From Escherichia coli (GTDB lineage Bacteria; Pseudomonadota; Gammaproteobacteria; Enterobacterales; Enterobacteriaceae), in the NCBI RefSeq assembly GCF_003991155.1, contig NZ_CP031293.1: DNA of 64,000 nt. One strand, written 5' to 3'. Made by a program: the position numbers and the translations under genes. This document shows, in pieces, positions 9,024 through 63,728 of the stretch; within the stretch, counting starts at the first letter, position 1; the number at the start of each line of letters is the position of its first letter. A model generated the notes under the pieces. It was not told the origin of the DNA, made no database searches, and worked only from the letters and a program-made list of their open reading frames with translations.

Positions 9024-9067
9024 AGGGCGAAATCTGCCGCCTCTACCATTACAATACGGAGTTCATC

Positions 9068-9903: not shown

Positions 9904-9910
9904 TTATGAA

Positions 9911-9936
9911 GGCCGGATACACTTTGTTATCCGGCC
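9911..9936 (+). terminator. Stem-loop (REP-like palindrome) after the hsdR remnant
   Basis: GGCCGGATA ... TATCCGGCC 9-bp inverted repeat; weak T-tract, so terminator function uncertain. Confidence 0.35.
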
Positions 9937-10024
9937 ATTCTGAATTAACGTTAATTTCTCTTCCAGATCTTTCCAGTAACGCTTTTATTATTTTCTATTT
10001 TTAGCTGGACTTTCCCTGTATTTA

Positions 10025-10040
10025 CTGATGATATATCCAG
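10025..10040 (+). promoter_or_regulatory. Putative LexA box (CTG-N10-CAG) in the symE promoter
   Basis: CTGATGATATATCCAG about 80 bp upstream of the symE ATG; symE is a known SOS-regulated gene. Confidence 0.55.
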
Positions 10041-10047
10041 GTATTTA

Positions 10048-10124
10048 GCGCGGTGCGAATGTGCGCCAACACACCCGCACCGCTCATCACAATCCCTATT
10101 TCACGAGAATAGTAATCATGACTG
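10048..10124 (-). ncRNA. symR: SymR-like cis-antisense sRNA overlapping the symE 5' end (position inferred)
   Basis: By analogy with K-12 symE/symR; a TAGAAT -10-like hexamer lies on the minus strand just inside the symE coding start. Exact ends not determinable from sequence alone. Confidence 0.35.
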
Positions 10125-10456
10125 ACACGCATTCTATTGCACAACCGTTCGAAGCAGAAGTCTCCCCGGCAAATAACCGTCAATTAACCGTGAGTTATGC
10201 GAGCCGCTACCCGGATTACAGCCGTATTCCCGCCATCACCCTGAAAGGTCAGTGGCTGGAAACCGCCGGTTTTGCTACCGGCACGGCGGTAGATGTCAAA
10301 GTGATGGAAGGCTGTATTGTCCTCACCGCCCAACCACCCGCCGCCGAAGAGAGCGAACTGATGCAGTCACTGCGCCAGGTGTGCAAGCTGTCGGCGCGTA
10401 AACAAAGGCAGGTGCAGGATTTTATTGGGGTGATTAGTAGCAAAACGCCACGCTAA
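10118..10456 (+). CDS. symE: SOS-induced toxin-like protein SymE
   Basis: ATG at 10118: [48 protein letters not shown]... recognised as SymE (YjiW). Confidence 0.85.
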
Positions 10457-46567: not shown

Positions 46568-46684
46568 GTTGCTACCGTAACAGCGTTGAAGATAATTTGG
46601 CCGAGACTGTAGTGGCCCAGTTTAAAAGGTAGCAGAATTTTAAAAGTGTCAGGTGCATAGAATTAAAAAAATGGAACTATAAAA

Positions 46685-48418
46685 ATGGAAATCATATTAC
46701 CAAAAAACACCTTATATGACAGAGAGCAAAATGTCTTTTTTGAAAAGGTTACGGCCTTAATTGGCGAAAATGGTGCTGGTAAGTCCTCGATTTTACAATC
46801 CGTATTTATTAACTGTTTAACAAAAAAATATCTACCAGAAACAAAGGTTGTTTGTTTTTCTTCTGGACAAAATGAGAAATACTCAACGTACTTCTCTGAT
46901 TATCTTTCTCATGAAAGGCAAGCAAATAGAGGTCTTAACTTAGATTGTTGTTATTACGATAAATCATGGTCAAAGTTACTAATATTCATATCCACAATTT
47001 GTAAATCAAATGGTCTTGTTAGAAATTTTTTATGTGAGAAAGGCTATATTGATGTATCAGATGATAAAAATGATGATATATCAAGCAAGCTTACATTGAC
47101 GGTCCGAGTAAATTCGGCTTACGTTAATCGAGTAAAAATGGCATTAGCACAAGAAGAACAAGGTATTGAAAATACTTTAAGGTATTCAGCTTATCATAGG
47201 ACTTTAGAAAGTTTCATTAATAATATTGTTAATGCTGATTATGATTTCGAGTCTCCACTTGAAGCTCAAGAGATCTTGCTAACTCATTCAAATTTTTTCA
47301 ATCCATCATTTGAGGAAGCAGAAGATTCCTTTTTTGATCCTATCATAACATTTTTCACTCAAGCAGCAGATAATGATTACTTTATAATAAAACCATCATT
47401 ACAGCTAGAGTTTAAAAATAATATCGAACTGAATGATATTAGTGATGGGGAATATCAAGTACTCTTTTTATACTCTCTGCTTGATATTTTTGATAGTCCT
47501 AATACTTTATTCTTATTAGATGAGATAGATTCCCATTTACATTACAAGAATATTGAGCTCTTATGGCATCGACTACATAGTATTAATGGTTATGCGATAA
47601 CAACCACCCATCTATTAGACTCAATTACAGCTACTGATAATGATTTTAAAAACTTAAAGATTGTTGATAAAGGAAAAATAAAAGAAGATGATAAAATAAA
47701 AACTATAATAGAACGTTTATCTGTCTTGACAAGAATATCAGACGTACAGTTCGAAGTGTGTCGTAAACTAGAAAACATAGTATTGATGGATGATTATAAT
47801 GATTGGACTATTTTTTATGCCTTAGCAAAGAAAAAAGGACTTGATGTATCAAAGTTAGATGGCCTCCATGCAATAAAACAGTCCTCTGGTTACGATAATT
47901 TAAATCAAGAGTTCGCAAAACCAAAAATAGAGTGGATTAATTCGCTTTTAAATGTAAATACTGATAAAAAAGTCAAAAGAATATTCATGATCTGCGACAA
48001 AGATGAGGCTCCAATTACCTATCAGAAAGATGGAGTTCAAGTCAATGGAAGTGAATATTCAAAACATATAGCGAAGTTAGAAAATAAAAACAAAAATAAA
48101 ATATATCTCCTTGCATGGAAAAGAAGAGAAATAAAAAACTACTTACTATCTTATACGGCATTGTCCCATCATGGATTTATCGAGCAAATAAACAATGGAG
48201 ATCTGCCAGCTAACAGTTATTTAAAAGAAAACGATCCTGGAGATAATTCAGCAATTAGCCGGCTTAACGTAAAACATTGCATCACAAAAATAATTGATTC
48301 TGATGGTATAGGATTAGATATATCAAAACTTTACTCATATATAGAACTTATACCACCTGCTGAGATCAGTGAAGATATAGTGAACATGTACAATTTTTTG
48401 GTGGAGAAATTAAAATGA
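46685..48418 (+). CDS. OLD/PARIS-like ABC-type ATPase (AAA_15/21-like) with C-terminal Toprim-like (RloB/DUF4435-like) domain
   Basis: 577 aa; Walker A LIGENGAGKSSIL, Walker B/D-loop LFLLDEIDSHLH, C-terminal DxD-type motif IFMICDKDE; very AT-rich coding sequence; stop overlaps the next gene's start (ATGA). Confidence 0.6.
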   Translation: MEIILPKNTLYDREQNVFFEKVTALIGENGAGKSSILQSVFINCLTKKYLPETKVVCFSSGQNEKYSTYFSDYLSHERQANRGLNLDCCYYDKSWSKLLIFISTICKSNGLVRNFLCEKGYIDVSDDKNDDISSKLTLTVRVNSAYVNRVKMALAQEEQGIENTLRYSAYHRTLESFINNIVNADYDFESPLEAQEILLTHSNFFNPSFEEAEDSFFDPIITFFTQAADNDYFIIKPSLQLEFKNNIELNDISDGEYQVLFLYSLLDIFDSPNTLFLLDEIDSHLHYKNIELLWHRLHSINGYAITTTHLLDSITATDNDFKNLKIVDKGKIKEDDKIKTIIERLSVLTRISDVQFEVCRKLENIVLMDDYNDWTIFYALAKKKGLDVSKLDGLHAIKQSSGYDNLNQEFAKPKIEWINSLLNVNTDKKVKRIFMICDKDEAPITYQKDGVQVNGSEYSKHIAKLENKNKNKIYLLAWKRREIKNYLLSYTALSHHGFIEQINNGDLPANSYLKENDPGDNSAISRLNVKHCITKIIDSDGIGLDISKLYSYIELIPPAEISEDIVNMYNFLVEKLK

Positions 48419-50322
48419 ACACCTCTTTATTTGAAGATCTACTTACACTAATCAAGAAAAAGAGTTCGATAAGGAATACAGAACAAGCAGTAGAGTTAAT
48501 TTCATTATTTATTTTTTTACATTATATAAAATTATATCTTTATGAAAATGATAAAAGATTTTCAGATATAAAAAACATATCAAGCAACAACATTAATGAA
48601 ATTAAATATTATTATCAGCAACTATATGAAAGTTTTATTTTCTCGATAGATATAAAAAATATAAACCACGACATGCTTGAAAAGCTCAGGAGTAAGATAG
48701 GTTTTTTAATTAATAACATCAATGACCATGAAATAATTAAATATATAGATTATTCTATTTCGCAGATACATTCACTTACAGAATTCTATCAATATGCAAA
48801 TTCTTATCAATCTTTAATTCTTAGGATGGTTAATGAATCGGGTCGTTCAGGTGAATATGTTACTCCATCTGCTTTAGTTCAGCTCATGGTTGAAATGTTA
48901 TCACCTACAGATGGCACATCAATCTACGACCCCGCATGTGGAACTGGGGGTTTATTAATAGAGTCAGCACGATATATTAAAGGCAACAGTTTAAACAAAA
49001 ACTTAAATTTAAATTATTCCCTTATTGGTAATGACACATCATCATTTGCCTGTCTAATCTCAATTGTTAACCTTTTAATCAATAAAGAATTTAATTTTGA
49101 AATAATACTAAAAGATAGCTTAGATATAAATTATAAGAATACAAAATATGACTTTATTTTAACTAACCCACCATTTGGGAAAAAGAGCGGTTGGGATAAT
49201 ATTCATATTGACACACATTATAAAGGACCTAATCTAGACTATTACTTCCTGGAGCATGTTATTGACTCTCTCGCTGTTAATGGCAAAGCAGCCATAATAT
49301 TACCAGAGCGTTTTTTATATGATGTGAGTAAAGAGTGCATCACTCTTAAAGATAAGATCTTCCAAAATTATAATTTAGATTGTATTTTATCTATACCGTC
49401 AGGTGCATTGCTTCCTTACACTGCAGTAAAATTATGTATTCTTTTTATAAGTAATCCTGGCCCAACAGATAGAATATTTTTCTACAATTTAAATAATGGT
49501 GAAAAATACTCACGTACAAATATTATAAAATTCGATGATTTTATAGATTTTTTAGAGTCAGCAAAAAATAGAACAATAACTGAACACTCCTGGATTATCA
49601 ATATTAGTGATACACCTTCATCTTATAACTTACTCTTAAAAGATAAAGAGCGAAACTCATATGAGTTTCTTAGTGATTCTATAGTTAACATTGAACAGAC
49701 AATACGTAATAATGAATTATTACTAACAGAGTTGTCTTTATTAAGAGAAAAAATAGCAATCTTAGAGTCAACAATAAAAAATCATTCGCATGAATATGAA
49801 TTTGAGAGACTTAAAGTTGGAAATATTGCAATAGTAAAATCCGGAAATTTATTACAAAAAAACAGGCTGTTACCCACTGGACCAATTCCTGTATACGGTG
49901 GAAATGGAGTTATTGGATATAACAATGAGGCAATGGTAAATGGTGAAAATATTATTATTGGTAAGGTCGGAGCTCTTTGCGGAAACGTTCGGTATGTTCA
50001 AGGTGATATTTGGGTGACAAATAACTCATTAATTATTAAGAATTATTTACCAAATAAAGTTTTAACACCCTACCTTGCAAAGTTATTATCTACTTTAAAC
50101 TTAAGAAAGCTCGCCGTTGGTACCGCTCAACAATATTTAACCACAACACAAATAAAAAATGTAGAAATTAGCATTCCACCTTTAACGACCCAGCATAAAT
50201 TAAATATGTGGCTTGATGAGTTAGATAATACCCTTGAACAATATAATAAGCTCATTGAAAAAATAATGAATGATAAGCGAGAACTTAAAGAGAATTTGTA
50301 TAAAGGTCTTTTAATAGAATAG
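48415..50322 (+). CDS. HsdM-like N6-adenine DNA methyltransferase fused to one HsdS-type target-recognition domain (M-S fusion)
   Basis: 635 aa; motif X EYVTP, motif I DPACGTGG, motif IV TNPPFG; C-terminal ~180 aa resemble a single TRD plus HsdS conserved helix (KVGNIAIVKSGN ... VTNNSLIIKN ... TTQHKLNMWLDELD); AT-rich; translationally coupled to the upstream gene. Confidence 0.7.
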   Translation: MNTSLFEDLLTLIKKKSSIRNTEQAVELISLFIFLHYIKLYLYENDKRFSDIKNISSNNINEIKYYYQQLYESFIFSIDIKNINHDMLEKLRSKIGFLINNINDHEIIKYIDYSISQIHSLTEFYQYANSYQSLILRMVNESGRSGEYVTPSALVQLMVEMLSPTDGTSIYDPACGTGGLLIESARYIKGNSLNKNLNLNYSLIGNDTSSFACLISIVNLLINKEFNFEIILKDSLDINYKNTKYDFILTNPPFGKKSGWDNIHIDTHYKGPNLDYYFLEHVIDSLAVNGKAAIILPERFLYDVSKECITLKDKIFQNYNLDCILSIPSGALLPYTAVKLCILFISNPGPTDRIFFYNLNNGEKYSRTNIIKFDDFIDFLESAKNRTITEHSWIINISDTPSSYNLLLKDKERNSYEFLSDSIVNIEQTIRNNELLLTELSLLREKIAILESTIKNHSHEYEFERLKVGNIAIVKSGNLLQKNRLLPTGPIPVYGGNGVIGYNNEAMVNGENIIIGKVGALCGNVRYVQGDIWVTNNSLIIKNYLPNKVLTPYLAKLLSTLNLRKLAVGTAQQYLTTTQIKNVEISIPPLTTQHKLNMWLDELDNTLEQYNKLIEKIMNDKRELKENLYKGLLIE

Positions 50323-50330
50323 ATCACAAT

Positions 50331-50357
50331 AGCAGGGTGTCCATAAAACACCCTGCT
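50331..50357. terminator. Hairpin between the convergent M-S fusion gene and hsdR
   Basis: AGCAGGGTG-TCCATAAAA-CACCCTGCT stem-loop. Confidence 0.45.
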
Positions 50358-50402
50358 ACTGGTTGCAAGTAAGTTGCAATATCTGTACTGCTGAAGCTAC
50401 TA

Positions 50403-53400
50403 TTAATAATGCTCCTCAATATACCCATACGCCTTCTGGAACAACTCTTTATCTTTCCCTAGTCCAAACTGGGCCAAGGTCAGTAAAAGCGCCTTTTGGA
50501 TTTCGCGCGGGCCACTGTTGGAATTTTGCCAGCCATCAAAGCGGGTAGCTTTCACAATTTTATCAATTTGCTCTACAACATCACCGATTAACTTAGGGGT
50601 AGTTTCCGGACGTGTTTCGAGGAAAAGCTTAGTCAACGCCTGTTTATTATCAGCTTCAGTTACTGGGCGCTCGCCCGTTTCGCGCTCGGCTTGAACGGTA
50701 TCTTTCGCTGCATCCAACAGGCCTTTCAACCAGTCAATGGCCTTGATAACACCAGCTTCATAGTCCTGACGCAGTTTTTCAAGGCGCTCGCCCAATGCCA
50801 CAAATTTAGGATCATGACTGCCGCGCAAACGTCCCATAAGATCAATCTCCAGGCGTTTGGCACGTTGTTCCTGCTCTTTAGCGGTCAGGGTAAAAATAGC
50901 GTGCTCGTCCATAACCAACTCGTCAATATCATCGCGAATACGATTGATATCAGTATGCTCATGGATCATCTTGATTGTTTCGGGGCCAAGGGCAGCCCAA
51001 ACAAGCGCACCTGTCTGCCCTACCGGACGCACCGATTCATAAATTTGCGCCAGCCATTTATAGTCCTGACGATAAGAGGTCAAAAAAGGATCTGGGTTGA
51101 TAGCTGACCATAACTTGGATAACACACCAAAGCTGGCAGCGAATTCATCGCGTTTCTCGTTGGTCGGCAGGCATTCCTGCGCGGCCATAATACCTTCAAA
51201 ACCAGCTATGGACCGATCCACACCAGGGAAGAAGGACAAACATTTATTCAGTTGTAACGGCAATAGCTCTTTAAATGCCTCAATTCCCTCTACAACTCCT
51301 TCAATTTCTTCAGGGTTATAGGCCAGAGCGGTACGCAGATTTTCGAAAACGCCGAGGTAGTCGATAATTAATCCCATGTCCTTGCGTACAGTATCGGTTT
51401 CGTACAACCGGTTGGTTCGGCACATGGCCTGAAGAAGAGTATGATCGCGTAGAGGCTTATCGAGGTACATGCAGTAGCAAATCGGGGCATCAAAACCCGT
51501 AAGCAGCTTGGCGGTTACGATAATAAGCTGTAATGGATGTTCAGGATCTTTAAAGCATTCAATCAGATCCTTTTGCACCTGTTCTTCGGCATCAATGTGC
51601 TGCCAGCGTTCAAAATCGACTTGTTTGACTGGCAGCTCCAACTCATCATGCCATTTAAGCCAATCCTTGTTGAGCTTGTCTTTTTTGCCACCCTCTTCAA
51701 CTTTAACCGGAGCCTGGTCAACGTTCATAACCACTTCAACCGCATCAAAACCAAGCTTTTCACCGAGCAAATAATACATCTGCACACAGGCTTCGCGATC
51801 GTATACCACAACCATGCCTTTCATCTTTTTCGGCATAACATGGTTGGTAAAATGCTCAGCAATATCATTACTCACCGCAGCCATACGCCTAGGGGATTTC
51901 AGCATGATTGCCAGCTTGCCTGCACGCCTGGACAATGCTGCTTTTTCTTCTTCATCCAGGTTGTTTTCGGTAGCCAGTTGCTCGAACTCTTCATTGATGG
52001 CATCACGATCCACTCGGAGTTCAGCCAGCCGAGGTTCGAACTTCACCGGGTTAGTTGCGCCATCCCGGATCGACTGCTTATAGCTATAGCGGCTCATATA
52101 GCGACCTGGATCTTCTTCGGCACCGAACAATTTGAACGTATTACGATCAATGCCAGAAATCGGAGTACCAGTCAGGCCATAGAAGTGGGCATTGGGCAAC
52201 GCCCAGCGCATTTTCTCGCCTAATCCCCCTTCCTGTGTACGGTGAGCTTCGTCAACCAACACAATGATATTGTCCCGGTTGTTCAGGCCATTAGGGTTGC
52301 TATCGTCAATTTCGATATCTTTAAATTTAAAGATGGTGGTGATTAAAATGCCACGGCTGTCTTGTTCTATGTATTCACCCAACTTTTTGCAGCTTTGCAC
52401 TTTAATCAGATTCTTAACGTCGGCTCCGCCAAAGGTCTCGTTAATTTGGCTGTCCAGATCTCGCCGGTCCACAACGATAAGTACCGTCGGGTTTTTTAAC
52501 GCATTATCGGCACGTAGCATTTTGGCGGCGTAAAGCATCAACAAGGATTTACCCGATCCCTGGAAATGCCAAATAAGACCTTTTTTTGGATAGCCTCTGC
52601 GAACACGCTCAACAATTTGTTTTGCAGCTTCAAATTGCGGATAACGCGGCAGGATTTTAACGCGTTTAGGTGGAGTATTTTTGCCCGTTTTGACGGTTGA
52701 AAATAATGCAAAAGATTCAAGTAACTGCAATAAGGTTTGTGGATTTAACAAACTCTCACAGCTGTTGAGTACCGATGCTAATCCCGGCAGAATTTCATCA
52801 CGAAGCTCAGTATTATGCCAGGGCCCCCAGTCTTTAACTCTGGCATTAATGGCACCATAGGCAAAGGTTTTTCCTTCGCTGGCAAAGCACAGCAAGTTAG
52901 GTACAAAGAAAGATTCAACATTTTTCCAGTAGTACTTTTTGCCACCCATGAAATCGGCAGCACCGTCTTGCCAGGTCACGCTGGGGCGTGTTGCGGTTTT
53001 AACTTCGCCCACTACTAGCGGTATGCCGTTCACATAAAGAACAATATCAAAATAGACTTCAGTGGCCGCGATATAGCGAACCTGCTGCGCCACCACAAAG
53101 TGGTTGTTCTCTATATTGTCAAAATCAATCAGATTGATGGTGATATGGTCGCCATTCTTACCAAAAGGCAAGGTTTTGTCGGCCATCAACCATTCCTGGA
53201 AGTTTTCATTGGCCTTTACCAAGCCGGTATGGCGGGCTTCTAAAACCACTCCTCGCAGTTTGTAAATGACCTCATCGGCATAGTCAGGCTGTCTGCCGAT
53301 ATCAGGGTTTAACGAACAAAGCGCGTCTTTTAGCCACTCATCAACGAAGATATCCTGCGCTTGTTTAGGCAGGTTTTCACCGTGGCAGTAAGTCCACTTG

Positions 53401-53465
53401 ACTCCGCTTAAACCTTTTAAACGGTCGATAATTCCATTTTCTGTGACGGTTTGTTCGTTAAACAA
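50403..53465 (-). CDS. hsdR: Type I restriction enzyme R subunit
   Basis: 1020 aa; SF2 helicase motifs (GSGKSLLMLYAA Walker A, VLVDEAHRTQ DEAH box); last gene of a tightly packed four-gene operon. Confidence 0.9.
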   Translation of the reverse strand: MFNEQTVTENGIIDRLKGLSGVKWTYCHGENLPKQAQDIFVDEWLKDALCSLNPDIGRQPDYADEVIYKLRGVVLEARHTGLVKANENFQEWLMADKTLPFGKNGDHITINLIDFDNIENNHFVVAQQVRYIAATEVYFDIVLYVNGIPLVVGEVKTATRPSVTWQDGAADFMGGKKYYWKNVESFFVPNLLCFASEGKTFAYGAINARVKDWGPWHNTELRDEILPGLASVLNSCESLLNPQTLLQLLESFALFSTVKTGKNTPPKRVKILPRYPQFEAAKQIVERVRRGYPKKGLIWHFQGSGKSLLMLYAAKMLRADNALKNPTVLIVVDRRDLDSQINETFGGADVKNLIKVQSCKKLGEYIEQDSRGILITTIFKFKDIEIDDSNPNGLNNRDNIIVLVDEAHRTQEGGLGEKMRWALPNAHFYGLTGTPISGIDRNTFKLFGAEEDPGRYMSRYSYKQSIRDGATNPVKFEPRLAELRVDRDAINEEFEQLATENNLDEEEKAALSRRAGKLAIMLKSPRRMAAVSNDIAEHFTNHVMPKKMKGMVVVYDREACVQMYYLLGEKLGFDAVEVVMNVDQAPVKVEEGGKKDKLNKDWLKWHDELELPVKQVDFERWQHIDAEEQVQKDLIECFKDPEHPLQLIIVTAKLLTGFDAPICYCMYLDKPLRDHTLLQAMCRTNRLYETDTVRKDMGLIIDYLGVFENLRTALAYNPEEIEGVVEGIEAFKELLPLQLNKCLSFFPGVDRSIAGFEGIMAAQECLPTNEKRDEFAASFGVLSKLWSAINPDPFLTSYRQDYKWLAQIYESVRPVGQTGALVWAALGPETIKMIHEHTDINRIRDDIDELVMDEHAIFTLTAKEQEQRAKRLEIDLMGRLRGSHDPKFVALGERLEKLRQDYEAGVIKAIDWLKGLLDAAKDTVQAERETGERPVTEADNKQALTKLFLETRPETTPKLIGDVVEQIDKIVKATRFDGWQNSNSGPREIQKALLLTLAQFGLGKDKELFQKAYGYIEEHY

Positions 53466-53466
53466 T

Positions 53467-54633
53467 TTATTGTCCCCTCAGAAGAATATTCAAATAACTG
53501 GACTTGAGTTTACGAATTTTTTGAAGCCTTGATTTAGCTTCTCTATAACTGTTTTCGGCTAAATGTAATATATCCTTATATTTCCCAAGCTCTCTTGATG
53601 GTGGTATAACCATCTTCTGAGAATGTACATCGGCATCATTAACAGCCGGGAAACTTGTACCAACTGCCAAATTGGTTAATGAATAAGTGAATTGCTTCGA
53701 CAAAGTGAAATAATAAATAAAATCGGACAAATCATTTTTTGCCCTTAGAACAGTAAAACCTGTTGATGCTATTGAATCATTCAATATTTCAGACACATAA
53801 AACGTAGCTCTATGATTGGGTCTAACAGTGCTAACAACAATATCTTTTTCCTTAAGAATACGCCGAGCTCGGCTGGGGGCTTCAGCGAAATGGTATTCTT
53901 TAGGAGTATCGACAAAACCAGGAAAAGTCACTGAAGATATATCTATATACCTAATCAGCTTATTTTTATTGGCATCATTACTTAACAAGTCAAAATTAAT
54001 ATTTGATACATCCTTCAATCTAACTTTGTTATATCCAAATGGCAGTTTTTCTTTTCGATCAAATGTAGTCAACCGATCAATTAATCTTTGAAATAAATTT
54101 AATGCAGACCTTTCAGTCTCATTTGCACAATGTAATACTTGTTCGATTTTTTTTAAAGAATTTAAAAAATCAACTTGCAGATCCATTTCAGGAATAATAA
54201 ATTCCTGCTGACTTAAAACTTTCCATTTTATCGTTGGAGACAATGACCCCTCCGAAATTGCTACTGCACGATTCATGAAAGTATCAGACTGCATAATAAA
54301 GGGTAAAAACTCAGGTATTACAGTATTTGAATTTGCCTCCAGAACCATGGCATGAGCCGAACAGATACAATCCCAATCTGCTACCGCGACTTTACGTTGA
54401 TAAGCACGACGCTTACCAAAAATAATCTGGCCTTTTTTCACTAAAAGCTTCTGCCCTTCAACGTCACTGGGTGTACCATGACGTTTGATTTTCAGGCTGT
54501 CAGGGTCTAAATGCTCCAAACCGACATAAATTTCAAGGTCTGTCTCGCTCGGTTCCACTCGTTTAGAGATATGTTTAGCGATATCGCCAAACTTCACCAT
54601 TTGCCAGCCTTCAGGTAATTGCTGTTCTGTCAT
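53467..54633 (-). CDS. hsdS: Type I R-M specificity subunit (two TRDs)
   Basis: 388 aa with two TRD-like halves separated by a conserved central region; AT-rich; abuts hsdM2 and hsdR. Confidence 0.85.
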   Translation of the reverse strand: MTEQQLPEGWQMVKFGDIAKHISKRVEPSETDLEIYVGLEHLDPDSLKIKRHGTPSDVEGQKLLVKKGQIIFGKRRAYQRKVAVADWDCICSAHAMVLEANSNTVIPEFLPFIMQSDTFMNRAVAISEGSLSPTIKWKVLSQQEFIIPEMDLQVDFLNSLKKIEQVLHCANETERSALNLFQRLIDRLTTFDRKEKLPFGYNKVRLKDVSNINFDLLSNDANKNKLIRYIDISSVTFPGFVDTPKEYHFAEAPSRARRILKEKDIVVSTVRPNHRATFYVSEILNDSIASTGFTVLRAKNDLSDFIYYFTLSKQFTYSLTNLAVGTSFPAVNDADVHSQKMVIPPSRELGKYKDILHLAENSYREAKSRLQKIRKLKSSYLNILLRGQ

Positions 54634-56133
54634 TTACTGCTCCACCTTGCTTTCAACGTTATATCCAAGCTCTGCAAGGCTCTGGAATAATTTATTAGTT
54701 TGCTTTTTCAACTGAGTACGGCTTACTTTCCACGCTTCAATCGCATGTTCAATATTATGTACTTCAGCGTTGTTTTGTGCTTGCACATACAGTGGAATTG
54801 AAAGGTTATAAAGGTTTTCTTTAATAGCTTCAATATTCACTAAAGAGGTTATATCGTTTTTTTTCTCCGGATTAAAATAAGCCTCGCATAATACCTCCAA
54901 ATCCTCATCGGATAAGCGACTATGAGCGCGTTCACGGGTAACATGCTCAACCCCGTTGATAAATAACACTTTATTTTTGCGTTCGGCAGGTTTATTGCAA
55001 TTAAGCACCACCACACAAGATTCCATCGGCGAGTTATAAAACAGATTTGGTCCCAAACCAATCACCGCTTCAATAATGTCCGATTCAATCACCTGTTTAC
55101 GAATGGCCTGCTCAGAATCACGGAACAGCACACCGTGTGGCCAGAGCATAGCAGCACGACCGGTATCGGGTTTTAAACTTTTAATTATATGGGTATAAAA
55201 AGCATAATCAGCGCAGCCCTGCGGTGGGACACCATAAAGATTTCGACCATACGGATCAGCAGCAAACTTGTCACGATTCCATTTTTTAATGGAGTACGGT
55301 GGGTTGGCAAAAATCACATCAAACTGCTTGAGCCGATCGTTTTCAATAAACTTTGGCTCAGCCAAAGTATCACCACGCAGCACATCAAACTCTTCAATAT
55401 CGTGCAGGAACATATTCATACGGGCGATTGCGGATGTCAGCAGGTTCACTTCCTGACCATAAAGGTGCACAGAGCGCCACTCTTCCCCTCTAGCACGCAG
55501 ATCCATCACTGCATTTAGCAACATCCCACCTGTGCCACACGTTGGATCATAGGCGGTTTCACCCGGTTTTAAGCCCATAATGCGCGTCATTAAATGCACG
55601 ACTGTTCGGTTGGTGTAGAACTCTGCTGCCGTATGACCGGAATCATCAGCGAACTTTTTAATCAGGTATTCGTAGGCCTCACCAAGATCATCCTGAGCGA
55701 CAGATTTAATGCCTAGCGGAATTTGACTGAAATGTTCAATCAGATCAGCCAGCAGATGATCGGGCAGGCGCTCTTTATTGGTCCACTGCGCATCACCGAA
55801 GACGCCATGTAAACGCGGATTATTGGCTTCAATTAGTCGAAGCGCATTCTGGATCGCTTCACCAATGTTTTTACTGGTATTGCGTACCTTTTCCCAACTG
55901 GCTTCAGAGGGAATGTTGAAACGGTGAAACATCGGCATGGCGGCATATTCAGCATCACCTTCATGGAGTTCCAGCGCTTCGTTATATTCTTCCAGATAGA
56001 CATCTGACAGGCGTTTGTAAAACAGCAACGGGAAGATATACTGCTTGTAGTCTGATGCGTCAATTTGGCCACGAAGAAATTCGGCGGCTCCCCAGAGCAG
56101 CTCTTCCAGCTTTTTATTACTCATAGTACTCAT
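54634..56133 (-). CDS. hsdM: Type I R-M methyltransferase subunit, paralogue 2 (motif X variant FYTNR)
   Basis: 499 aa; HsdM_N (DASDYKQYIFPLLFYKRLSDVY), DPTCGTGG, ANPPYS; start overlaps the stop of the upstream hsdM paralogue (ATGA). Confidence 0.85.
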   Translation of the reverse strand: MSTMSNKKLEELLWGAAEFLRGQIDASDYKQYIFPLLFYKRLSDVYLEEYNEALELHEGDAEYAAMPMFHRFNIPSEASWEKVRNTSKNIGEAIQNALRLIEANNPRLHGVFGDAQWTNKERLPDHLLADLIEHFSQIPLGIKSVAQDDLGEAYEYLIKKFADDSGHTAAEFYTNRTVVHLMTRIMGLKPGETAYDPTCGTGGMLLNAVMDLRARGEEWRSVHLYGQEVNLLTSAIARMNMFLHDIEEFDVLRGDTLAEPKFIENDRLKQFDVIFANPPYSIKKWNRDKFAADPYGRNLYGVPPQGCADYAFYTHIIKSLKPDTGRAAMLWPHGVLFRDSEQAIRKQVIESDIIEAVIGLGPNLFYNSPMESCVVVLNCNKPAERKNKVLFINGVEHVTRERAHSRLSDEDLEVLCEAYFNPEKKNDITSLVNIEAIKENLYNLSIPLYVQAQNNAEVHNIEHAIEAWKVSRTQLKKQTNKLFQSLAELGYNVESKVEQ

Positions 56134-57629
56134 ACCTCGAAACCTTCTTTGATAAGCAGGGCCTCCAGCTCCTCTTCTGCTTTTTCCAGCTCAGCCAGCT
56201 TCCGTTGAAAATCTTTGAGCGCCTCTTCCACAGTGATGGTTTCTTCTTCGAGTGGCTTTTGCACATAACGAGCAATATTTAGATTGAAGTCATTTTCTTC
56301 AATCTCCTTCAGAGAAACCCAGCGTGCAACGCCTTCGATTTCTTTTGCATCTGGCCCTTGTTGCGCCTGGTCATGATAGATTTGGTATATTTCATCGGCC
56401 TGCTTGTTGGACAGCGTATTCTGCGCACGTCCCTTGGTATAGATTTCTTCAGCATTGATGATCAATACATGATCTTTATGCGCGGCCGGACGTGATTTAC
56501 GCAGCACCAAAATACACGCAGGAATCCCAGTCCCATAGAACAGGTTGGAAGCAACACCAATAATCGCCACAATGCGATTCTCTTGCAGTAATTTGGTTCG
56601 AATTGCCCCCTCTGCGCCGCCACGAAACAGCACACCATGAGGTAATACGACTGCCATACGTCCATTGTCGTTAAGTGAAGCAAACATATGCTGCACCCAG
56701 GCAAAATCACCATTTGTTTTAGGCGCCAGGCCATATTGCTTACGGCCATAGGGATCGTTCGACCACAGATCGTATCCCCATTCTTTTAAGCTAAATGGTG
56801 GGTTGGCAACAACGCAGTCAAAGGTTTCTAAACGATCGCTTTTTAAAAATTTAGGTTCGCGTAAAGTATCCCCTCGGACAATATCGAAATCTTCCTGTCC
56901 ATGCAGGAACAGATTCATACGCGCAATAGCTTCCGTCGTTAAGTTCTTTTCCTGACCCTTGATTTTTAGTAAACGCGGATCACCACCATTTTCTTTTACA
57001 TGGTGGATGGTCTCAAGCAGCATACCACCGGTACCACAGGCGGGATCGTAGACACTCTCACCGGCTTTTGGATCAAGAATGTTAACCATCAAACGAACGA
57101 TAGTTCGTGGGGTATAGAACTCACCGGCTTTCTTATTGGCTTTGTCTGCAAAGCGTTTGATCAGATACTCGTATGCGCGCCCCATATCATCGTCACGGAC
57201 ACTAGAAACGCCAAGGTTCACCTTATTGAAGTGATTGAGTAACGTAGCCAGTAACTCATCAGAAAGGCGTTCTTTATTGGTCCAGCTGGCATCGCCAAAA
57301 ATGCCATGCAGTTTAGGGTTTGCCAGTTCTATACCACGGAAGGACTCTTTTAAAGCCTGACCGATGTCCTTGGTCTCAGCGAAAACATCGCGCCAGTGGC
57401 AATTTTCAGGTATCTGAATACGGTGAAACATCTTGCCCTTGGCAAGCTCTGCATCCCCAATGCTCTCCATCGCATCGGCAAATTCTTCGTCATACACGTC
57501 ACAAATGCGCTTGAAGAACAGGATGGGGAAAATGTACGTTTTGTAATCTGACGCATCAATGGGCCCTGTAATAATATGGGCTGCATGCCATAGATGGGCC
57601 TCGAGATCTTTTAGGTTAATCAGTGTCAT
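56130..57629 (-). CDS. hsdM: Type I R-M methyltransferase subunit, paralogue 1
   Basis: 499 aa from ATG 57629 (MTLINLKDLEAHLW...); DASDYKTYIFPILFFKRICDVY, GEFYTPR, DPACGTGG, ANPPFS; ORF track extends to 57731. Confidence 0.85.
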   Translation of the reverse strand: MTLINLKDLEAHLWHAAHIITGPIDASDYKTYIFPILFFKRICDVYDEEFADAMESIGDAELAKGKMFHRIQIPENCHWRDVFAETKDIGQALKESFRGIELANPKLHGIFGDASWTNKERLSDELLATLLNHFNKVNLGVSSVRDDDMGRAYEYLIKRFADKANKKAGEFYTPRTIVRLMVNILDPKAGESVYDPACGTGGMLLETIHHVKENGGDPRLLKIKGQEKNLTTEAIARMNLFLHGQEDFDIVRGDTLREPKFLKSDRLETFDCVVANPPFSLKEWGYDLWSNDPYGRKQYGLAPKTNGDFAWVQHMFASLNDNGRMAVVLPHGVLFRGGAEGAIRTKLLQENRIVAIIGVASNLFYGTGIPACILVLRKSRPAAHKDHVLIINAEEIYTKGRAQNTLSNKQADEIYQIYHDQAQQGPDAKEIEGVARWVSLKEIEENDFNLNIARYVQKPLEEETITVEEALKDFQRKLAELEKAEEELEALLIKEGFEV

Positions 57630-57872
57630 TGTTGTCTCTTTTCGATCCTGCAGTGCTTGAACTCTCAGCAACTCATGGATTTCACAGTAAAAAAGCAAGT
57701 AAAGCGATTCCACAACCACCTGAGCGTTCAATATGTATGACGCCTTTACCCAAGTTGCTTAAATCAAGGAAATTGCCAGAGATAATACTCTGGCATCAGA
57801 ATGATACCAAGTTGAAGGGCTGATTTCCGCATCAATACCTTGTGGTAATAGGGGATTACTCTTTTACCCTTA

Positions 57873-58910
57873 TTGGCGCAAAATGGCGGCATTTCCTCAT
57901 TTCTCCATCGGAGCATCTTACGCGCTATAACCACTCTCGTTTTTTCCTATTCCCATGCAGATGAAGCACTACGCAATGAACTTGAGAAGCATCTCTCCCC
58001 GCTGAAGCGAACCGGGAAGATCACAACATGGCACGATCGCCGCATCGTTCCTGGTCAGGAGTTCGAACGTCAGATCGACCACTATTTTTCGCAAGCAGAT
58101 ATCATCCTGATCCTGATCAGCAGTGACTTTATTGCTTCTGATTACTGCTATCAGGTAGAGATGAAAAACGCACTGGAACGGCATAACCGGGGCGAGGCAG
58201 TGGTCATTCCGGTAATTTTAAGAGACTGTGCATGGCATCAGTTAGAATTCGGCAGCATTATGGCGGCGACTATCGACGGTAAACCCATCACTAAGTTTGC
58301 CACCCACGATGAAGGCTACGTTCAGGTCGTCGAGGCTGTCTCGCGTGCCATTGCCCGGATGGAAGCCAAAAAACCACAGCAAACCATACATATCCCTTCA
58401 CCGGCTCCGGCGAATCCGATCTTTCAGGGAGTAGATTCCGTTTTTACACCGCGTTCAAGCAACCTTACTCTACCCAAGAAATTTACCGATCTGGATAAAG
58501 ATCGTGCCAGACGTGAGGGCTTTGAATATGTTGCCCGCTATTTTGAAAATTCGTTAGATGAACTCAAAAAGCGCCACCCCGGATTAGATATCGATTTTAA
58601 TCGGCTTGATACAGATTCATTCACCTGTGCCGTGTATATCAATGGCAGTAAGGTCGGCCAATGTGGCATCTGGCGAGGCAATCAACATCATGGAATGGGA
58701 GATATCTGTTATAGCCAGGATAATGTTGTTCGAAACAGTATTAACGAAACTCTAAGCCTTGCTGATAACGGCCAGACTCTTGGTTTTCGTGCTCTGATGG
58801 GAGGCTTCAGTCGAGGAACTTCACGAGACGAACTATTGACCAATGAAGGTATGTCGGAACATCTCTGGGAAATGTTCTTCGGGCTAATCAAGCAAAGAAT
58901 GTCCCGATAA
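57873..58910 (+). CDS. TIR-domain protein with uncharacterised C-terminal domain
   Basis: 345 aa; N-terminal ~150 aa show bacterial TIR pattern (VFSYSHADEALRNELEKHL ... ADIILILISSDFIASDYCYQVEMKNALERH); remaining ~190 aa not recognised. Confidence 0.65.
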   Translation: MAQNGGISSFLHRSILRAITTLVFSYSHADEALRNELEKHLSPLKRTGKITTWHDRRIVPGQEFERQIDHYFSQADIILILISSDFIASDYCYQVEMKNALERHNRGEAVVIPVILRDCAWHQLEFGSIMAATIDGKPITKFATHDEGYVQVVEAVSRAIARMEAKKPQQTIHIPSPAPANPIFQGVDSVFTPRSSNLTLPKKFTDLDKDRARREGFEYVARYFENSLDELKKRHPGLDIDFNRLDTDSFTCAVYINGSKVGQCGIWRGNQHHGMGDICYSQDNVVRNSINETLSLADNGQTLGFRALMGGFSRGTSRDELLTNEGMSEHLWEMFFGLIKQRMSR

Positions 58911-59094
58911 TTTGCCATATCACAGTCGGGCATACTGCCCGATTTTTGTGCTGTCATTATTGGCAATATCTCAATAGGCGTTGAGAAATGGTGCAATTTA
59001 ATCTTGCCAGAGCGCTGTTACTTGGGGACGAAATTAATGGGCTCCTGCTGTAGTTACAGCAACGCCTGTAAATACAAAAATAGGCGTTGCAAAT

Positions 59095-60150
59095 TCATGC
59101 TGGCAAATACGTTTTCTTAAGCGGCACCAATAGCTTAGTCTCTATATCCACTTGCTCATAGTTTTCAACTAACGCGCGTACCAAATCATCCAGCGTCCAT
59201 AGCGTCAACGGGATTGTAGAACGATCGGCCTCATAACGCGCATCCTTGCTGAATCCGCCGGTACTGACATACAGCCCGCGATCGTCTTTATGGCGGCCAC
59301 CGATAAAGCTACGGATTTGCTGGCTGCTCATCTGTTCCCGCCGGTGCTTCACCTCAACAATAATGCGCGGATTTTCAAACCCAAATCCGTCAGGCGAAGC
59401 AATGATGTCTTTCCCACGGTCAGCACCCGCAGGCGATACCTGAGTTTTATATCCCATGCTGCGTAACACGCCAGCGACCAGATTCTGCATCTCATCCCAG
59501 TCGAGACGGTTGATACGATCCTTGATGCCTTCAAAAGCGATCATTTCCATGTCGCGCAGAGGATTAGAAACGACCTCATCCTCTTCACCTGAAACAGGTA
59601 CTTCCGGCACGATATCTGAGACAGGCTTATTGCCCTGCACTAATTCATTCACAGCAAAATCAGGCACCTGAAAAACTGTCAGCGTTGAACCAAGGGTGTT
59701 TCTAGTTGCATCACTCAGACTATCGCGCTTAATCTCTTCCGCATTCCACTTCACTTTACGGGCGATGCCCATGCCATCTTCAAGCCACTCGGCATGAAAC
59801 TCAAAATCTGACGCTATTTTCCCTATTAAATAGGTCCGATTAGAAGGTGAATAAGTGATAGCCCAGTCGCCTTTCTGCATTTCATTCACAAAGCGCCAGA
59901 CCTGAGAAGCTCCAGAACGAACTGTGCCTGGCTTAGTCTGTGGCTCAAGCTCCTGATACCGGGTAAACAACTGCTCTCTTGAGCATCCAGGTTTCACATA
60001 GGGAGCGAGCTGCGACCAACCAATTGCAACAACCTGTTTGTCTCTGAAGTCGTCGTACAATTTTCCGCCATCACCGCGGATCATCCACATCTTAGTCGCC
60101 ACAATAATTCCTTCTGAAAATACTTCATCGTTATACCGGGACGTGATCAT
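59095..60150 (-). CDS. Putative modification-dependent restriction endonuclease: PUA/EVE-like N-terminal domain fused to Mrr-type catalytic domain
   Basis: C-terminus has the Mrr core (GADRGKDIIAS ... IIVEVKHRRE ... YVSTGGFS); N-terminus has EVE-like pattern (VWRFVNEMQKGDWAITYS ... YLIGKIA); ATG 60150 has SD AAGGTGG (ORF track starts at 60183). Confidence 0.6.
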   Translation of the reverse strand: MITSRYNDEVFSEGIIVATKMWMIRGDGGKLYDDFRDKQVVAIGWSQLAPYVKPGCSREQLFTRYQELEPQTKPGTVRSGASQVWRFVNEMQKGDWAITYSPSNRTYLIGKIASDFEFHAEWLEDGMGIARKVKWNAEEIKRDSLSDATRNTLGSTLTVFQVPDFAVNELVQGNKPVSDIVPEVPVSGEEDEVVSNPLRDMEMIAFEGIKDRINRLDWDEMQNLVAGVLRSMGYKTQVSPAGADRGKDIIASPDGFGFENPRIIVEVKHRREQMSSQQIRSFIGGRHKDDRGLYVSTGGFSKDARYEADRSTIPLTLWTLDDLVRALVENYEQVDIETKLLVPLKKTYLPA

Positions 60151-60212
60151 TCCATTCAGCCACCTTATCCAGGGGAAAAACACCGATAAGATGGCTAATC
60201 AAAATGTCTGTT

Positions 60213-63200
60213 CTAAACCTGACGCCTATCAAGACTATTATAAATAGCCTCAATCTCACCTTTCAGGTTATCACCAGAGTAAACCATCGATGTATCGTAT
60301 CGTTCATATCGCGCTTCCCGTGTCGCACTAAACCAGTTGAACGATCCCACGCATAGCAAACCATCATCACCAATAACAATTTTGCTATGAACACGGTTTA
60401 CCAGCTTTGTAGCAATACCCAGCGCATTCAGTTTCTCCAGCGCCGCTTTAAGGTTCTGCTGCTTCTCTTTTCGCTTCTCAAAATCTTTATGTTCAGTGTT
60501 GTAGCTTCTGTCAGTGACTATCGTGACGTTAATACCACGTGAACACGCCGCAATCATGGAATCAAGAAAACCCGTTTGCTCCAGCTTTTGCCAGGTCAGC
60601 CATGGAGAAACTATCGTGATGTGTTTATCGGTATTTTCAAACGTCTGATTCAGGAAGTTATCATGCTGCTCCACACCATGAAGTGTGTAGATTTTGGTCT
60701 CGGAAGTTTTTAAATCCTTACGCTCTTTATAATCAAAAGAGAGCGCATTCTTCTCGAACTCAAAGAGATATTTTGCCAGCAATCCTCGCGGAGATGAGGG
60801 AGCCTGGATCTCAAACAGATCCATATCGCCGAAGACCAGGAAGCTATCCTTCGCACGGGAGACTGCAACATTCAGCATGCTGTTATCGCTATCAATAAAC
60901 CCGCCGTCTTCATGTTTTGAATAGACTGGCGAGAATATAACAATCGCTCTTTCCGCTCCCTGAAGAGAGTGCACGGTGCCCACTGTGAGCGACTTTTCAT
61001 TCGCGCCCGTACTGATACCTTGTTTACCCAGCGCCTGTTTTATAGTGGATACCTGCGCGCTAAAAGGCGTCACGATACCGACAACTTCATGAAGCGATTT
61101 GCCGTAATGCGCTTCAATATTTTGCTGGTTCTCTGCCAACCAGGCCGCTATCGTTTCAGCCTCAAGCAAATTATATCTACTTCCACTACTTGCCTGCTCT
61201 CCTTTACCATCAATATGGAGATAACCCATTGCGGGCATTAAATTGCTCTCTTCACGCCCTCTTTTAGGCAACAACTTACCGTGATAGCAGAGCGTATTAC
61301 AGTATCCAATAATATTATCGAAGCACCGGCGGTGTTCATATAGGTACATACCACGAGCCAGTTCGGGATCATATTGATAGCGCGAAGCAAACTGCGCTAT
61401 TTTCATAACGCTGCCAGATGCGGCACTTTTACCAAGGTCTGCGATTGCCGTATATTTCTCGGTAATCTCTTCTTGCGTACTGCCAGACAGAATTTTTTCC
61501 GCCAGCATGTTACCGACATCAATCGCGGGAGCAATACTCCATATTGGCGGGATCTGCTCCGTATCGCCAATCACTAATGCCTTCTTAGCTAATGCAAACG
61601 AGGCAGCAGCCACTTCAGGAAGCACCTGCCCGGCTTCATCGACAATGAGTAAATCGGCAAAATCATACAAATAACTTTTCTCGAATTTACGTTGTCCTTT
61701 GTGCTCACTTATCTGCATATTGCCGGGCAGCATATAGCATGTCATCACCACACATGGAGTGAGTTTCATTCGACGTTGCCAACGGGCGGTTACCCCTTTA
61801 GCGCCTTGTTTCTTCTTCTCTTCCTGCAGATCATCAATTCTGGCCATATCCATCAGCCAACGACCTTCCCAGTAGTGAGTCGTCAGTAAAAATGCAGGGA
61901 AGCGAATCTGCGTATCAGCCAGTTCATCGGCCTGTGAGAAGCTCAGTTCCTCGTCGCCCTCATACCCTAAATCAAATGCCAGCCTCTGCCACTCCTGAAC
62001 CGCCTGCTGTTCTTTAAGAACGATTTCATGGGCGGAGTCAATCTGCTGCCGGTATGTTGTTTGCTCGCGCTCAGCGGAATTGAGCAGCCCATCAATATTA
62101 CGTTCGATAGTTTCAGGATCAGACCACTGATTTCCTGCAATCAGCGCGCCTAATTTATCTTCGAGAAACAGCTGTATTTGGTACTGTCGCTTATTGCGAA
62201 CCGCCGGGAGCCAGGAAAATAATGAATAGATCAGTGATTCACCGGCGCGATATTTTTTCCATTCCGTTTTAGCACTCTTCAGTAGAGTGACTTTTTGTTC
62301 TTGTCCGGAAAGTAATTTATTTAAATTATCGAGATATTGCTCAATATCATTAGCAATAAGCTCACGCGCAGCCCGAATCTGGCTTAACATTTGCCATGTT
62401 GCGTTCAGTCTTATCAGTTGCTCGGATTTTGCTGCCAACTGACCATGCAGGAGTTCAATGATCTTTTCAGGGGATGAACACTCTTTTTCAGGAAAGGCTG
62501 CCTTAGCCTTCTCCAGATAAAACAGCAGTGCATCCTCTACATACTCTTTTGACTCAACCTGGGTGAAGAAATCTTCAGTTTGATATTTTTTGGCTGCCTC
62601 AGCTTTACGAGTGCTTGAGGGAAAATAAGCGCCGAAGCTTTTCAGCTCTGGCAACCATCGTCCGGCCATCGCACCTGAACCTTGCGAAAAGTCTTTCCCG
62701 AATGCCTCAATAATGTTCGTTACAGCCTGGTTATTCGTTGAAGTCGCGATAATAACCGGAGGCTCAGATTTTTCGAGAGCTGCTCTGGCCCACTGCGTGG
62801 CGATGATAGAAAGCACCAGCGTGGTTTTTCCGGTTCCCGGAGGTCCATTAACAGCAAGGATATCGCCATGTCTTGCATCCAGAAAATGGCTTAAGGCATC
62901 GCGCTGAGCCTTTGCCAGCGGAAACTTATCTCCGGAGTGTCCAAGCCTGTCGCTGAATTTTGCTCCTGGGGCCAGCAAAGACTCTGCAGCATGAACCTCT
63001 CGCGAGGCGAAGCGATTGAAGAGCGGCACATCCTTCTTGCAAACAAGCAGGTGATCATAAAGAGAAAGGATATGGAAACTGGCACCGCCAGATTGCGCCG
63101 TTTTAACAATATAACCGTGCTCAGCGAGTACATATTGCTCAGGATTTTTAATCCAGTCGCCGGCAACATTCTTCAGCAGCCTCTCTGAATCATCCAGATA

Positions 63201-63728
63201 TTGACGCCACTCCTGCTGCAAGGCTGCATATCGTGCTTCCCGTTCTTCATCCGTTTCGGCAGTCTTATCAATGCTGTCATCAAAGTTGATAGAGAACGAG
63301 GTATGGATTGTCTTGTATTTGTCATACTGCCCAATATCACCAATCGAAAATGCTCCTTTTGGCAAAGGTTCAAGCAGGTCTCTGGGAATGGAGGTCGCTG
63401 GCGTCGGATATAAAAAACCCTCACGGCTTAGCAAGGCTGGCGTCACTAGCGGGGTAACAATATCAGGTGCGCCTGCGGAACGGTCCTTACCATGCTGCAG
63501 TAACCGAAAATAAACTTTTGGGCGCAAGACGACATCGACCGTTTCGACATCGTCTTTTTCTCCCTCAAAAAATTTACTGACAATCGCTTCGTCAAGACGT
63601 CCCGCCGCTATCCCATGCCAGTGAGTGAAATTTTTGGCGTCTTTCCGTTCAAAACTGCCCTTTCCTGACTCAGCATCTGCAAGCGAGTTGCGCCAGTATG
63701 AGGCAAACCCTAAAGCATTTTCATCCAT
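60213..63728 (-). CDS. SF1 (Upf1/Dna2-like) helicase fused to C-terminal PLD-family nuclease; type II Mokosh-like
   Basis: 1171 aa; Walker [14 protein letters not shown], Walker [11 protein letters not shown], helicase C-terminal motifs ([17 protein letters not shown]), PLD HxK(x)4D motif [21 protein letters not shown]. Confidence 0.7.

Follow-up and report, generated by a model that had tools for sequence, protein, structure and literature searches.

An Escherichia coli homolog of the anti-phage protein SDIC1A that has lost its partner gene and its ATG start codon

To judge by its homology along the whole protein, the TIR-domain gene described here is an E. coli copy of SDIC1A, a member of a known and experimentally supported defense family, and its novelty is low. 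It lies in a 64,000-nucleotide stretch of the E. coli chromosome (hereafter the window). A sequence-only reading of the window had presented it as a new kind of orphan TIR protein; the protein is instead a full-length SDIC1A homolog whose partner, SDIC1B, was removed by a 336-bp deletion, and the gene is an "orphan" only through that deletion. The codon at the position of the family's start has also changed from ATG to ATA. We conclude that the system in this lineage is eroded and that the gene is probably an attenuated or silent remnant in the course of becoming a pseudogene.

SDIC1 was described in Serratia marcescens 2880STDY5682900 as the pair SDIC1A and SDIC1B (Cummins, Garrett, Blower and Mariano, preprint, bioRxiv 10.1101/2024.01.28.577318). 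SDIC1A has 323 amino acids, with a TIR domain at residues 1–103 and a C-terminal domain at residues 104–323, for which the authors gave the function as unknown and found no matching fold; both domains are needed (bioRxiv 10.1101/2024.01.28.577318). Protection is of the abortive-infection type and requires SDIC1A, whereas SDIC1B is dispensable. Growth is impaired by SDIC1A alone, and SDIC1B, a protein of ~105 amino acids, binds SDIC1A and relieves this toxicity; the interactions reported for SDIC1A are with itself and with SDIC1B (bioRxiv 10.1101/2024.01.28.577318). Cells with SDIC1A depolarize, which the authors favor as the primary effect, and the drop in whole-cell NAD+ that they measured was not statistically significant. 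Carried alone on a plasmid, SDIC1 protects both E. coli MG1655 and S. marcescens Db10, and SDIC1A by itself is protective as well as toxic in E. coli MG1655 (bioRxiv 10.1101/2024.01.28.577318).

The published primers allowed the type protein to be traced. Those for SDIC1A encode MATLVFS at the start, KSIKQRMT and a stop at the end, and EAIVIPV and ILRNCAW, and the SDIC1B primer encodes a product beginning MVQLNL (bioRxiv 10.1101/2024.01.28.577318). They match one Serratia locus (L016) with 0–3 mismatches, and this locus encodes a 323-aa protein (P0105) followed by a 107-aa gene. Because of these matches P0105 can be taken as SDIC1A or a near-identical allele, an identification made through the primers and not through a deposited sequence. 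Aligned with P0105, the window protein shows 64.1% identity across 326 aa (E = 1.6e-169); like SDIC1A, it combines an N-terminal TIR domain with a C-terminal domain in a protein homologous along its full length. The resemblance extends to size (~323–327 aa), to the Y4lF type of the C-terminal domain, to the chromosomal region (the LptG–YjiA island) and to the place at which the downstream SDIC1B reading frame begins. The window locus differs from that of Serratia in that SDIC1B is cut to 18 codons by the 336-bp deletion, SDIC1A starts with ATA and not ATG, and half of the E. coli alleles are disrupted further.

The coding region and its parts are as follows.

57927..58910, + strand: SDIC1A-homolog coding region as placed by homology, 327 codons plus stop, equal to the RefSeq CDS WP_024179470.1.
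57927..58370, + strand: TIR domain, residues 1–148 in the 327-aa numbering (Pfam, AF2 and Foldseek).
58158..58160, + strand: codon of the candidate catalytic Glu in YCYQVEMKNAL, E96 in the ORF numbering and E78 in the 327-aa numbering.
58374..58475, + strand: low-confidence, variable linker between the domains (pLDDT <50 for residues 150–183), the most variable and most gapped stretch of the family alignment.
58452..58907, + strand: Y4lF domain (Pfam PF27176), which opens with a conserved RSSNL motif and continues with a long helix, a six-stranded antiparallel sheet and a C-terminal helix.

The N-terminal TIR domain and its candidate catalytic glutamate, both named in the sequence-only reading, were borne out. 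A Pfam profile search matched the N-terminal half to TIR_2 (residues 24–131, E = 9e-14) and to TIR (E = 2.2e-7), and the AF2 model gave this part a TIR-type beta-alpha fold. When the full-length model was searched against the PDB with Foldseek, only TIR domains were returned (RPS4, MAL 5uzb, SPARTA and AbTIR); the nearest solved structure by sequence is the TIR domain of Cat1 (E = 1.8e-7). A search of NCBIfam with the protein yielded only sub-threshold TIR-like matches (FxsC and ThcB4). E96 aligns with the glutamate of the WCxxEL-type motif in the Cat1 TIR domain; its position is invariant in an alignment of 30 close homologs and is occupied by Glu in 125 of 127 family members that range from 21 to 86% identity. 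The window TIR domain carries the conserved Glu expected of enzymatic (NAD+-cleaving) TIR domains and may be one of them.

The C-terminal domain had been called unrecognizable. It is in fact catalogued as Pfam PF27176 (Y4lF), which is precomputed on all 120 homologs among the matches listed in a large protein search. The assignment reaches the window protein through these homologs, which include a 95%-identical protein (P0001), since the Pfam release used for our profile search predates PF27176. The domain is also covered by the PADLOC model PDLC00420 (labeled ThsB1/ThsB), which aligns residues 20–342 with profile positions 2–317 of 319 (E = 2e-153). Because this model spans the full length, it is the whole two-domain protein that belongs to a catalogued family.

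The full-length AF2 model (pLDDT 70.6) consists of the TIR fold, a disordered linker (150–183) and a compact C-terminal domain. The ~190-aa C-terminal domain first proposed therefore holds in part: some 150 aa form a folded domain, and the remaining ~35 aa are low-confidence linker. Structure prediction had been suggested as a check on this region, and its outcome depended on the query, with the full-length fold search returning only TIR folds and the domain alone giving a confident frataxin-like fold. Modeled by itself from 44 diverse sequences, Y4lF was predicted with confidence (pLDDT 92.3, pTM 0.86) and showed no transmembrane features. On this model, Y4lF is a frataxin-like alpha-beta sandwich, with an N-terminal helix, an antiparallel sheet and a C-terminal helix. 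Its sequence identity to Frataxin, CyaY and Nqo15 is only 7–14%, so that the likeness is one of fold, with no evidence of homology, and no evidence was found for an iron- or Fe-S-related function of Y4lF.

Matches in the AlphaFold database (AFDB) were nearly all TIR proteins of ~310–350 aa, together with one CHAT protein of 1176 aa. When the C-terminal half was searched exhaustively by itself, 728 cluster representatives were recovered; of the 150 representative matches listed from these, only one or two have the domain elsewhere than at the C terminus. Most full-length matches are TIR-Y4lF proteins; in some, a CAP12/Pycsar-type TIR or a CHAT protease takes the place of the usual TIR domain. 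Because killing domains are swapped on a constant C-terminal module, the pattern argues that sensing or assembly would fall to Y4lF and the effector role to the N-terminal domain. The earlier view that the C-terminal part is a separate module thus stands, and the sensor or regulatory role suggested for it is made plausible by these fusion partners. The namesake of PF27176 is y4lF, an uncharacterized gene on plasmid pNGR234a of an alpha-proteobacterium. It too joins TIR to Y4lF and is homologous along its full length (44% identity over 98% of the protein), and it differs from SDIC1 in that the gene downstream encodes an unrelated protein of ~161 aa and not SDIC1B.

The PADLOC label raises the question of Thoeris. 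The seven neighbors on the hsd side and downstream (48415–63728) were scanned with PADLOC, and the RefSeq annotation of the region that matches the window was also checked. No ThsA/SLOG, Macro, STING, SAVED or cyclase gene was present among the scanned neighbors or in the annotated region. To place the gene in its wider family, one genome per species was scanned; this gave 304 encoding loci, of which 80 were analyzed by unbiased clustering of their neighbors. No ThsA-like neighbor cluster recurred among the 80. SIR2 proteins do occur near homologs (PDC-S25, an hsd-embedded SIR2 and SIR2-HerA); against ThsA models they align with the SIR2 half alone and lack SLOG. A Thoeris locus was rejected on these grounds, as no ThsA was found in the window or beside homologs (80+ loci) and only SIR2-only proteins were seen. 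CBASS and Pycsar were rejected as well: the neighbors and the annotated region contain no cyclase, SAVED or STING, and the sole link is that a SAVED_TIR model weakly matches the TIR part alone. The sequence-only reading had likewise found no Thoeris or CBASS locus here, and neither ThsA nor a cyclase nor SAVED accompanies the homologs.

The gene might still be an orphan Thoeris ThsB whose TIR domain signals, through a cyclic ADPR-type product, to a ThsA-like effector encoded elsewhere in the genome. The best PADLOC model, matched over the full length, is the one labeled ThsB1/ThsB, under which PADLOC files the family, and the protein has a bacterial TIR domain whose conserved catalytic Glu would suit signal synthesis. 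The Pfam profile for ThsB_TIR (PF08937) is unmatched, however, only TIR_2 and TIR being hit, and the B. cereus ThsB chain (6lhy, 177 residues) is too short to hold a Y4lF domain. In addition to the missing ThsA and the lack of a SLOG half in the nearby SIR2 proteins, Y4lF is fused elsewhere to cell-killing CHAT and Pycsar-type TIR effector domains, and the characterized homolog of the window protein, SDIC1A, acts alone, being both protective and toxic in E. coli MG1655. An orphan ThsB is therefore extremely unlikely. Functional parallels are offered by systems from a survey of E. coli TIR proteins (PMC11350192) and by SpbK of ICEBs1, which likewise are stand-alone proteins with a TIR domain and a non-TIR recognition part and cause growth arrest or death on infection; their triggers are portal or tail-fiber proteins. 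In two of the surveyed systems, TIR-V and TIR-IX, the C termini superimpose and the N termini differ (PMC11350192). We take the C-terminal part that they share to be the TIR domain, so that the domain order is opposite to that of the window protein.

The missing partner was sought with tblastn and by alignment to a syntenic Salmonella island.

58988..59053, + strand: SDIC1B stub, the first 18 codons MVQFNLARALLLGDEING (58988–59041) with the ribosome-binding site kept, then unrelated sequence and a stop (LLL and stop).
59041..59042, no strand: junction of the 336-bp deletion relative to the syntenic Salmonella island, which takes out SDIC1B codons 19–102 and 81 bp of spacer.
58924..58944, + strand: terminator-like hairpin followed by a T-run just 3' of the stop codon (consensus scan, count not above shuffle expectation).

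Four SDIC1B homologs were compared with the window. Three of them matched the stub with 72–78% identity (E = 5e-5 to 2e-3) and the fourth with 56% (E = 0.06), and no other place in the window had a score comparable to that at 58988. The Salmonella island (L100) encodes P0001 and has the order HsdR-S-M-M, TIR with ATG, 102-aa SDIC1B, Mrr, MkoC and HNH, which is the gene order of the window. In the alignment, window positions 57701–59041 correspond to 6774–8114 of the island (94.5%) and 59042–59300 to 8451–8709 (90.3%). Where an SDIC1B of ~102–107 aa would be expected immediately downstream on the same strand, the window retains 18 codons. Consensus scans for promoters and terminators gave counts that were not above shuffle expectation.

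Across the 80 analyzed loci, SDIC1B lies directly downstream in seven, all from Enterobacterales. In nine others, from alpha-proteobacterial and other homologs, the gene directly downstream is an unrelated one of ~159 aa. The possibility that this is a distant SDIC1B was ruled out by sequence (hhalign probability 0.4%). Some intact homologs naturally have no SDIC1B, namely those of Serratia L002, Pectobacterium L011 and E. coli 10R and the copies embedded in BREX loci.

The second lesion concerns the start codon.

57873..57926, + strand: in-frame 5' extension of 18 codons from a TTG, the first start codon after a stop.
57910..57913, + strand: conserved Shine-Dalgarno-like GGAG, 13 nt upstream of the ATA/ATG, within a conserved 5' region of ~100 nt (57827–57926).
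57927..57929, + strand: ATA where the family has its conserved ATG start, a start-codon loss seen in alignments of homolog protein and DNA.

The gene had been given as 57873–58910, which is the + strand ORF of 345 codons that the window's ORF reading opens at TTG 57873 and closes with the stop ending at 58910. The reading frame is correct. The 5' end is a mechanical choice of the first start codon and misses the point, 18 codons further on at ATA 57927, at which homologs begin: Met occupies this position in 29 of 29 aligned homologs. The DNA alignment has ATG there in Serratia, Enterobacter, Klebsiella and Pectobacterium and in the 95%-identical Salmonella allele, and ATA was found in all three E. 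coli alleles of the window type whose start was read. Conservation of the 5' region between the window and Enterobacter, Klebsiella and Pectobacterium covers 57827–57926; the window keeps the GGAG and has ATA in place of the ATG behind it. The upstream TTG is missing from the four other genera aligned (Serratia, Enterobacter, Klebsiella and Pectobacterium). Salmonella has the same TTG, 55 nt upstream of its ATG and out of frame, and a 1-bp indel relative to Salmonella brings it into frame in the window; no Shine-Dalgarno sequence at normal spacing is visible before it. RefSeq start calls for these genes are inconsistent, with ATA used for full-length alleles and TTG for truncated ones.

The distribution of the gene in E. 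coli was then read from 5426 complete genomes, of which 106 contained a match. An uninterrupted allele of the window type was present in 49, a 1-bp frameshift allele with a 237-aa product in 8 and an allele with an internal deletion of ~232 bp in 43; the remaining 6 carried a divergent allele that is intact and has ATG. Of the 100 genomes with a window-type allele, 51 thus have a further frameshift or deletion. Only the 53-bp SDIC1B stub was present in 78 genomes, and a full SDIC1B in only 6, which belong to a different allele. Because the loss of the partner and of the ATG is common to all window-type alleles sampled, we read partner loss and the start-codon down-mutation as the first events and the independent disruptions as later ones. 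Such erosion fits the reported toxicity of SDIC1A without SDIC1B.

These data also bear on whether the gene might be a still-working stand-alone defense gene, translated at a low level from ATA or from TTG 57873 (which would add 18 residues), with low expression replacing the restraint by SDIC1B. SDIC1B is dispensable for protection (bioRxiv 10.1101/2024.01.28.577318), several intact homologs manage without it, and the indel relative to Salmonella that sets the TTG in frame would provide an alternative start. The ORF is open in 49 E. coli genomes, 43 of them at 100% identity, and a polarized substitution count detected no relaxed selection: 6 non-synonymous (including M1I) and 5 synonymous changes on the E. 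coli branch versus 4 and 7 on the Salmonella branch, small counts that show no non-synonymous excess in E. coli. Against this, the near identity of the 49 intact copies may simply mean that they are recent, and the extra frameshift or 232-bp deletion in 51 of 100 window-type alleles argues that E. coli can do without the gene. Initiation from ATA is very inefficient in E. coli, and the TTG has no Shine-Dalgarno sequence at normal spacing. On balance we regard a working gene as unlikely, if still a serious alternative, and favor the remnant, which matches the decay expected of a self-toxic effector that has lost its restraining partner.

The window matches the region of the E. coli chromosome that runs from yjiA past fim and nan towards tRNA-Leu, and the gene sits there among other defense genes.

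56130..57731, - strand: hsdM, the first of two in tandem, in a divergent type I R-M operon at 50403–57731 (PADLOC MTase_I, Specificity_I and REase_I).
59095..60183, - strand: convergent Mrr-type restriction gene (PADLOC PDC-S02, E = 1.4e-82).
60213–63728, after the Mrr-type gene: MkoC (Mokosh type II), 1171 aa (PADLOC E = 0).

The arrangement described from the sequence, divergent from hsdM and convergent with the Mrr-type gene, was confirmed. An examination of the flanks of homologs had also been proposed, and the result is a recurrent link to methylation-based systems. Of the 80 loci, 16 have type I R-M genes no more than 6 kb away and 7 have BREX genes. Of the 29 closest species-level loci, 22 have such a system at this distance: a type I R-M operon in 15, divergent as in the window, and BREX genes in 7. 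The R-M junctions are of at least three different types, with a divergent spacer of ~146–223 bp. Linkage to R-M is shared by the window, Salmonella, Enterobacter, Klebsiella and two other E. coli islands. At most BREX loci the gene is placed tightly between pglX and pglZ; in Pseudomonas flavescens 3 nt separate it from pglX upstream and 40 nt from pglZ downstream. At the Pectobacterium locus MkoC lies upstream instead, and the Serratia locus has SIR2-HerA. The linkage of TIR-Y4lF genes to R-M and BREX is an observation in the form of raw counts, and no paper noting it was found in a literature search.

This linkage could mean that the protein serves methylation-based immunity as an accessory or back-up module, in functional coupling with the type I R-M or BREX system next to it; the protein might sense phage anti-restriction factors or the failure of restriction and respond with abortive infection. 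The share of linked loci among the closest homologs, the variety of R-M junctions, the tight pglX–pglZ placement and the recurrence across genera and E. coli islands are in its favor. Defense genes cluster anyway, however, and the linkage is mostly missing from distant members (42–50% identity), while the Pectobacterium and Serratia loci have other neighbors. The protection conferred on MG1655 and Db10 by SDIC1 cloned alone also speaks against coupling, though both hosts have R-M systems of their own. We give this reading a small probability. A slightly slimmer chance attaches to its extension to the family, in which TIR-Y4lF proteins would be dedicated second-line modules of methylation-based immunity and Y4lF would sense anti-restriction factors or the state of the R-M or BREX system and switch on the fused killing domain, be it TIR, Pycsar-type TIR or CHAT protease. 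If true, it would explain why the gene is found divergent from hsd operons or between pglX and pglZ.

For an intact SDIC1 system, we propose that the Y4lF domain would act as a sensing or assembly module held in check by SDIC1B or by its own resting state. On infection, it would drive oligomerization of the N-terminal TIR domain, which would then consume NAD+ through the conserved Glu, possibly with an ADPR-derived product, and the cell would arrest; the reported membrane depolarization would be a consequence of NAD+ consumption. Because SDIC1A in the window starts with ATA instead of ATG, its translation would be limited to that very weak codon or to the upstream TTG, which lacks a good ribosome-binding site.

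The discovery value of the gene is small, as its family is already named, has its own Pfam domain and PADLOC model, and has been shown by experiment to act against phages. For annotation, the PADLOC "ThsB" label and the RefSeq start calls are misleading, and the allele should be flagged as an SDIC1 remnant. As a natural experiment, the partner deletion, the start loss and the repeated, independent disruptions in E. coli fit the toxicity of SDIC1A in the absence of SDIC1B. The frataxin-like fold predicted for Y4lF, its fusions to alternative killing domains and the linkage to R-M and BREX provide testable leads on what SDIC1A senses.

In the RefSeq records, PGAP starts the full-length allele of the TIR-Y4lF gene at ATA, giving a protein of 327 aa. 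The frameshifted and internally deleted alleles are started at the upstream TTG (237 and 216 aa, respectively), and neither carries a pseudogene flag.

The Y4lF domain is also found on other effectors, and it is again C-terminal in these fusions. A CHAT protease domain is fused to Y4lF in proteins P0134 and P0256, and a CAP12/Pycsar-type TIR, which belongs to a different TIR lineage, in P0188, P0269, and P0263; AFDB entry A0A355EWF5 is a further example of such a fusion.

TIR-Y4lF homologues are housed in type I BREX operons at locus L038 (6315-15723) and at L039-L041, L043, L045, and L046, mostly in the gap between pglX and pglZ. The Pseudomonas flavescens gene starts 3 nt past pglX and ends 40 nt ahead of pglZ. 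SDIC1B, the small partner gene of SDIC1A, was not seen with any of these BREX-embedded copies. Elsewhere, the TIR-Y4lF gene is repeatedly divergent from type I R-M operons (L018-L036 and L042; L005, L008, L015, L098, and L100), which fall into three or more distinct gene orders or families, with conserved spacers of about 146, 213, and 222 bp.

Uncharacterized genes also lie beside the homologues:

L104, 4483-4968: 161-aa hypothetical gene, downstream of y4lF
L016, 238-753, SDIC1A strand: unannotated 171-aa ORF
L098, 5418-5933, SDIC1A strand: unannotated 171-aa ORF

A conserved ~159-aa gene lies directly 3' of the TIR-Y4lF gene in nine species-level loci (L053, L055-L058, L061, L078, L085, and L088). 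Its hosts are Sinorhizobium, Rhizobium, Brevundimonas, Caulobacterales/Caulobacteraceae, Ciceribacter, and one Bacteroidetes MAG; it has no database match and is unrelated to SDIC1B in sequence. On pNGR234a, y4lF likewise has a gene after it, the 161-aa hypothetical gene listed above. The 171-aa ORF sits just 5' of SDIC1A in these two SDIC1-type loci; the window lacks it.

The type I R-M operon of the window has two tandem paralogous hsdM genes preceding hsdS and hsdR:

54634-56133, minus strand: hsdM paralogue
56130-57731, minus strand: hsdM paralogue

The product of 54634-56133 is 499 aa; that of 56130-57731 is 533 aa as the longest ORF and 499 aa as annotated. The syntenic Salmonella island likewise has the tandem pair. 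A low-GC block (0.30-0.34) at 46684-50322 (plus strand) encodes an AAA-family ATPase and, after it, a 635-aa protein resembling an HsdM-HsdS fusion. RefSeq annotates the latter in strain LWY24 as two proteins: a methyltransferase of the HsdM family and a short S subunit. At 59095-63728 (minus strand), there is an Mrr-type restriction gene (PADLOC PDC-S02; its Salmonella copy has Pfam DUF8426 and Mrr_cat). Next comes MkoC (1171 aa, helicase plus PLD), a Mokosh type II system made up of one gene. The neighbors of yjiA (~7083-10455) comprise a BrnT/BrnA toxin-antitoxin pair, a restriction endonuclease gene, hsdM and hsdR pseudogene fragments, and symE. The stretch appears to be a classical immigration control region that has decayed.

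The Serratia sp. DD3 genome has four TIR-Y4lF copies on four contigs (L028, L029, L030, and L037); in every case the same YagK/YfjJ-like gene lies on the 3' side, at a distance of 264 bp. AlpA and YfjJ-type genes are also present in many other TIR-Y4lF loci, which suggests that the TIR-Y4lF gene is carried on a small integrative element.
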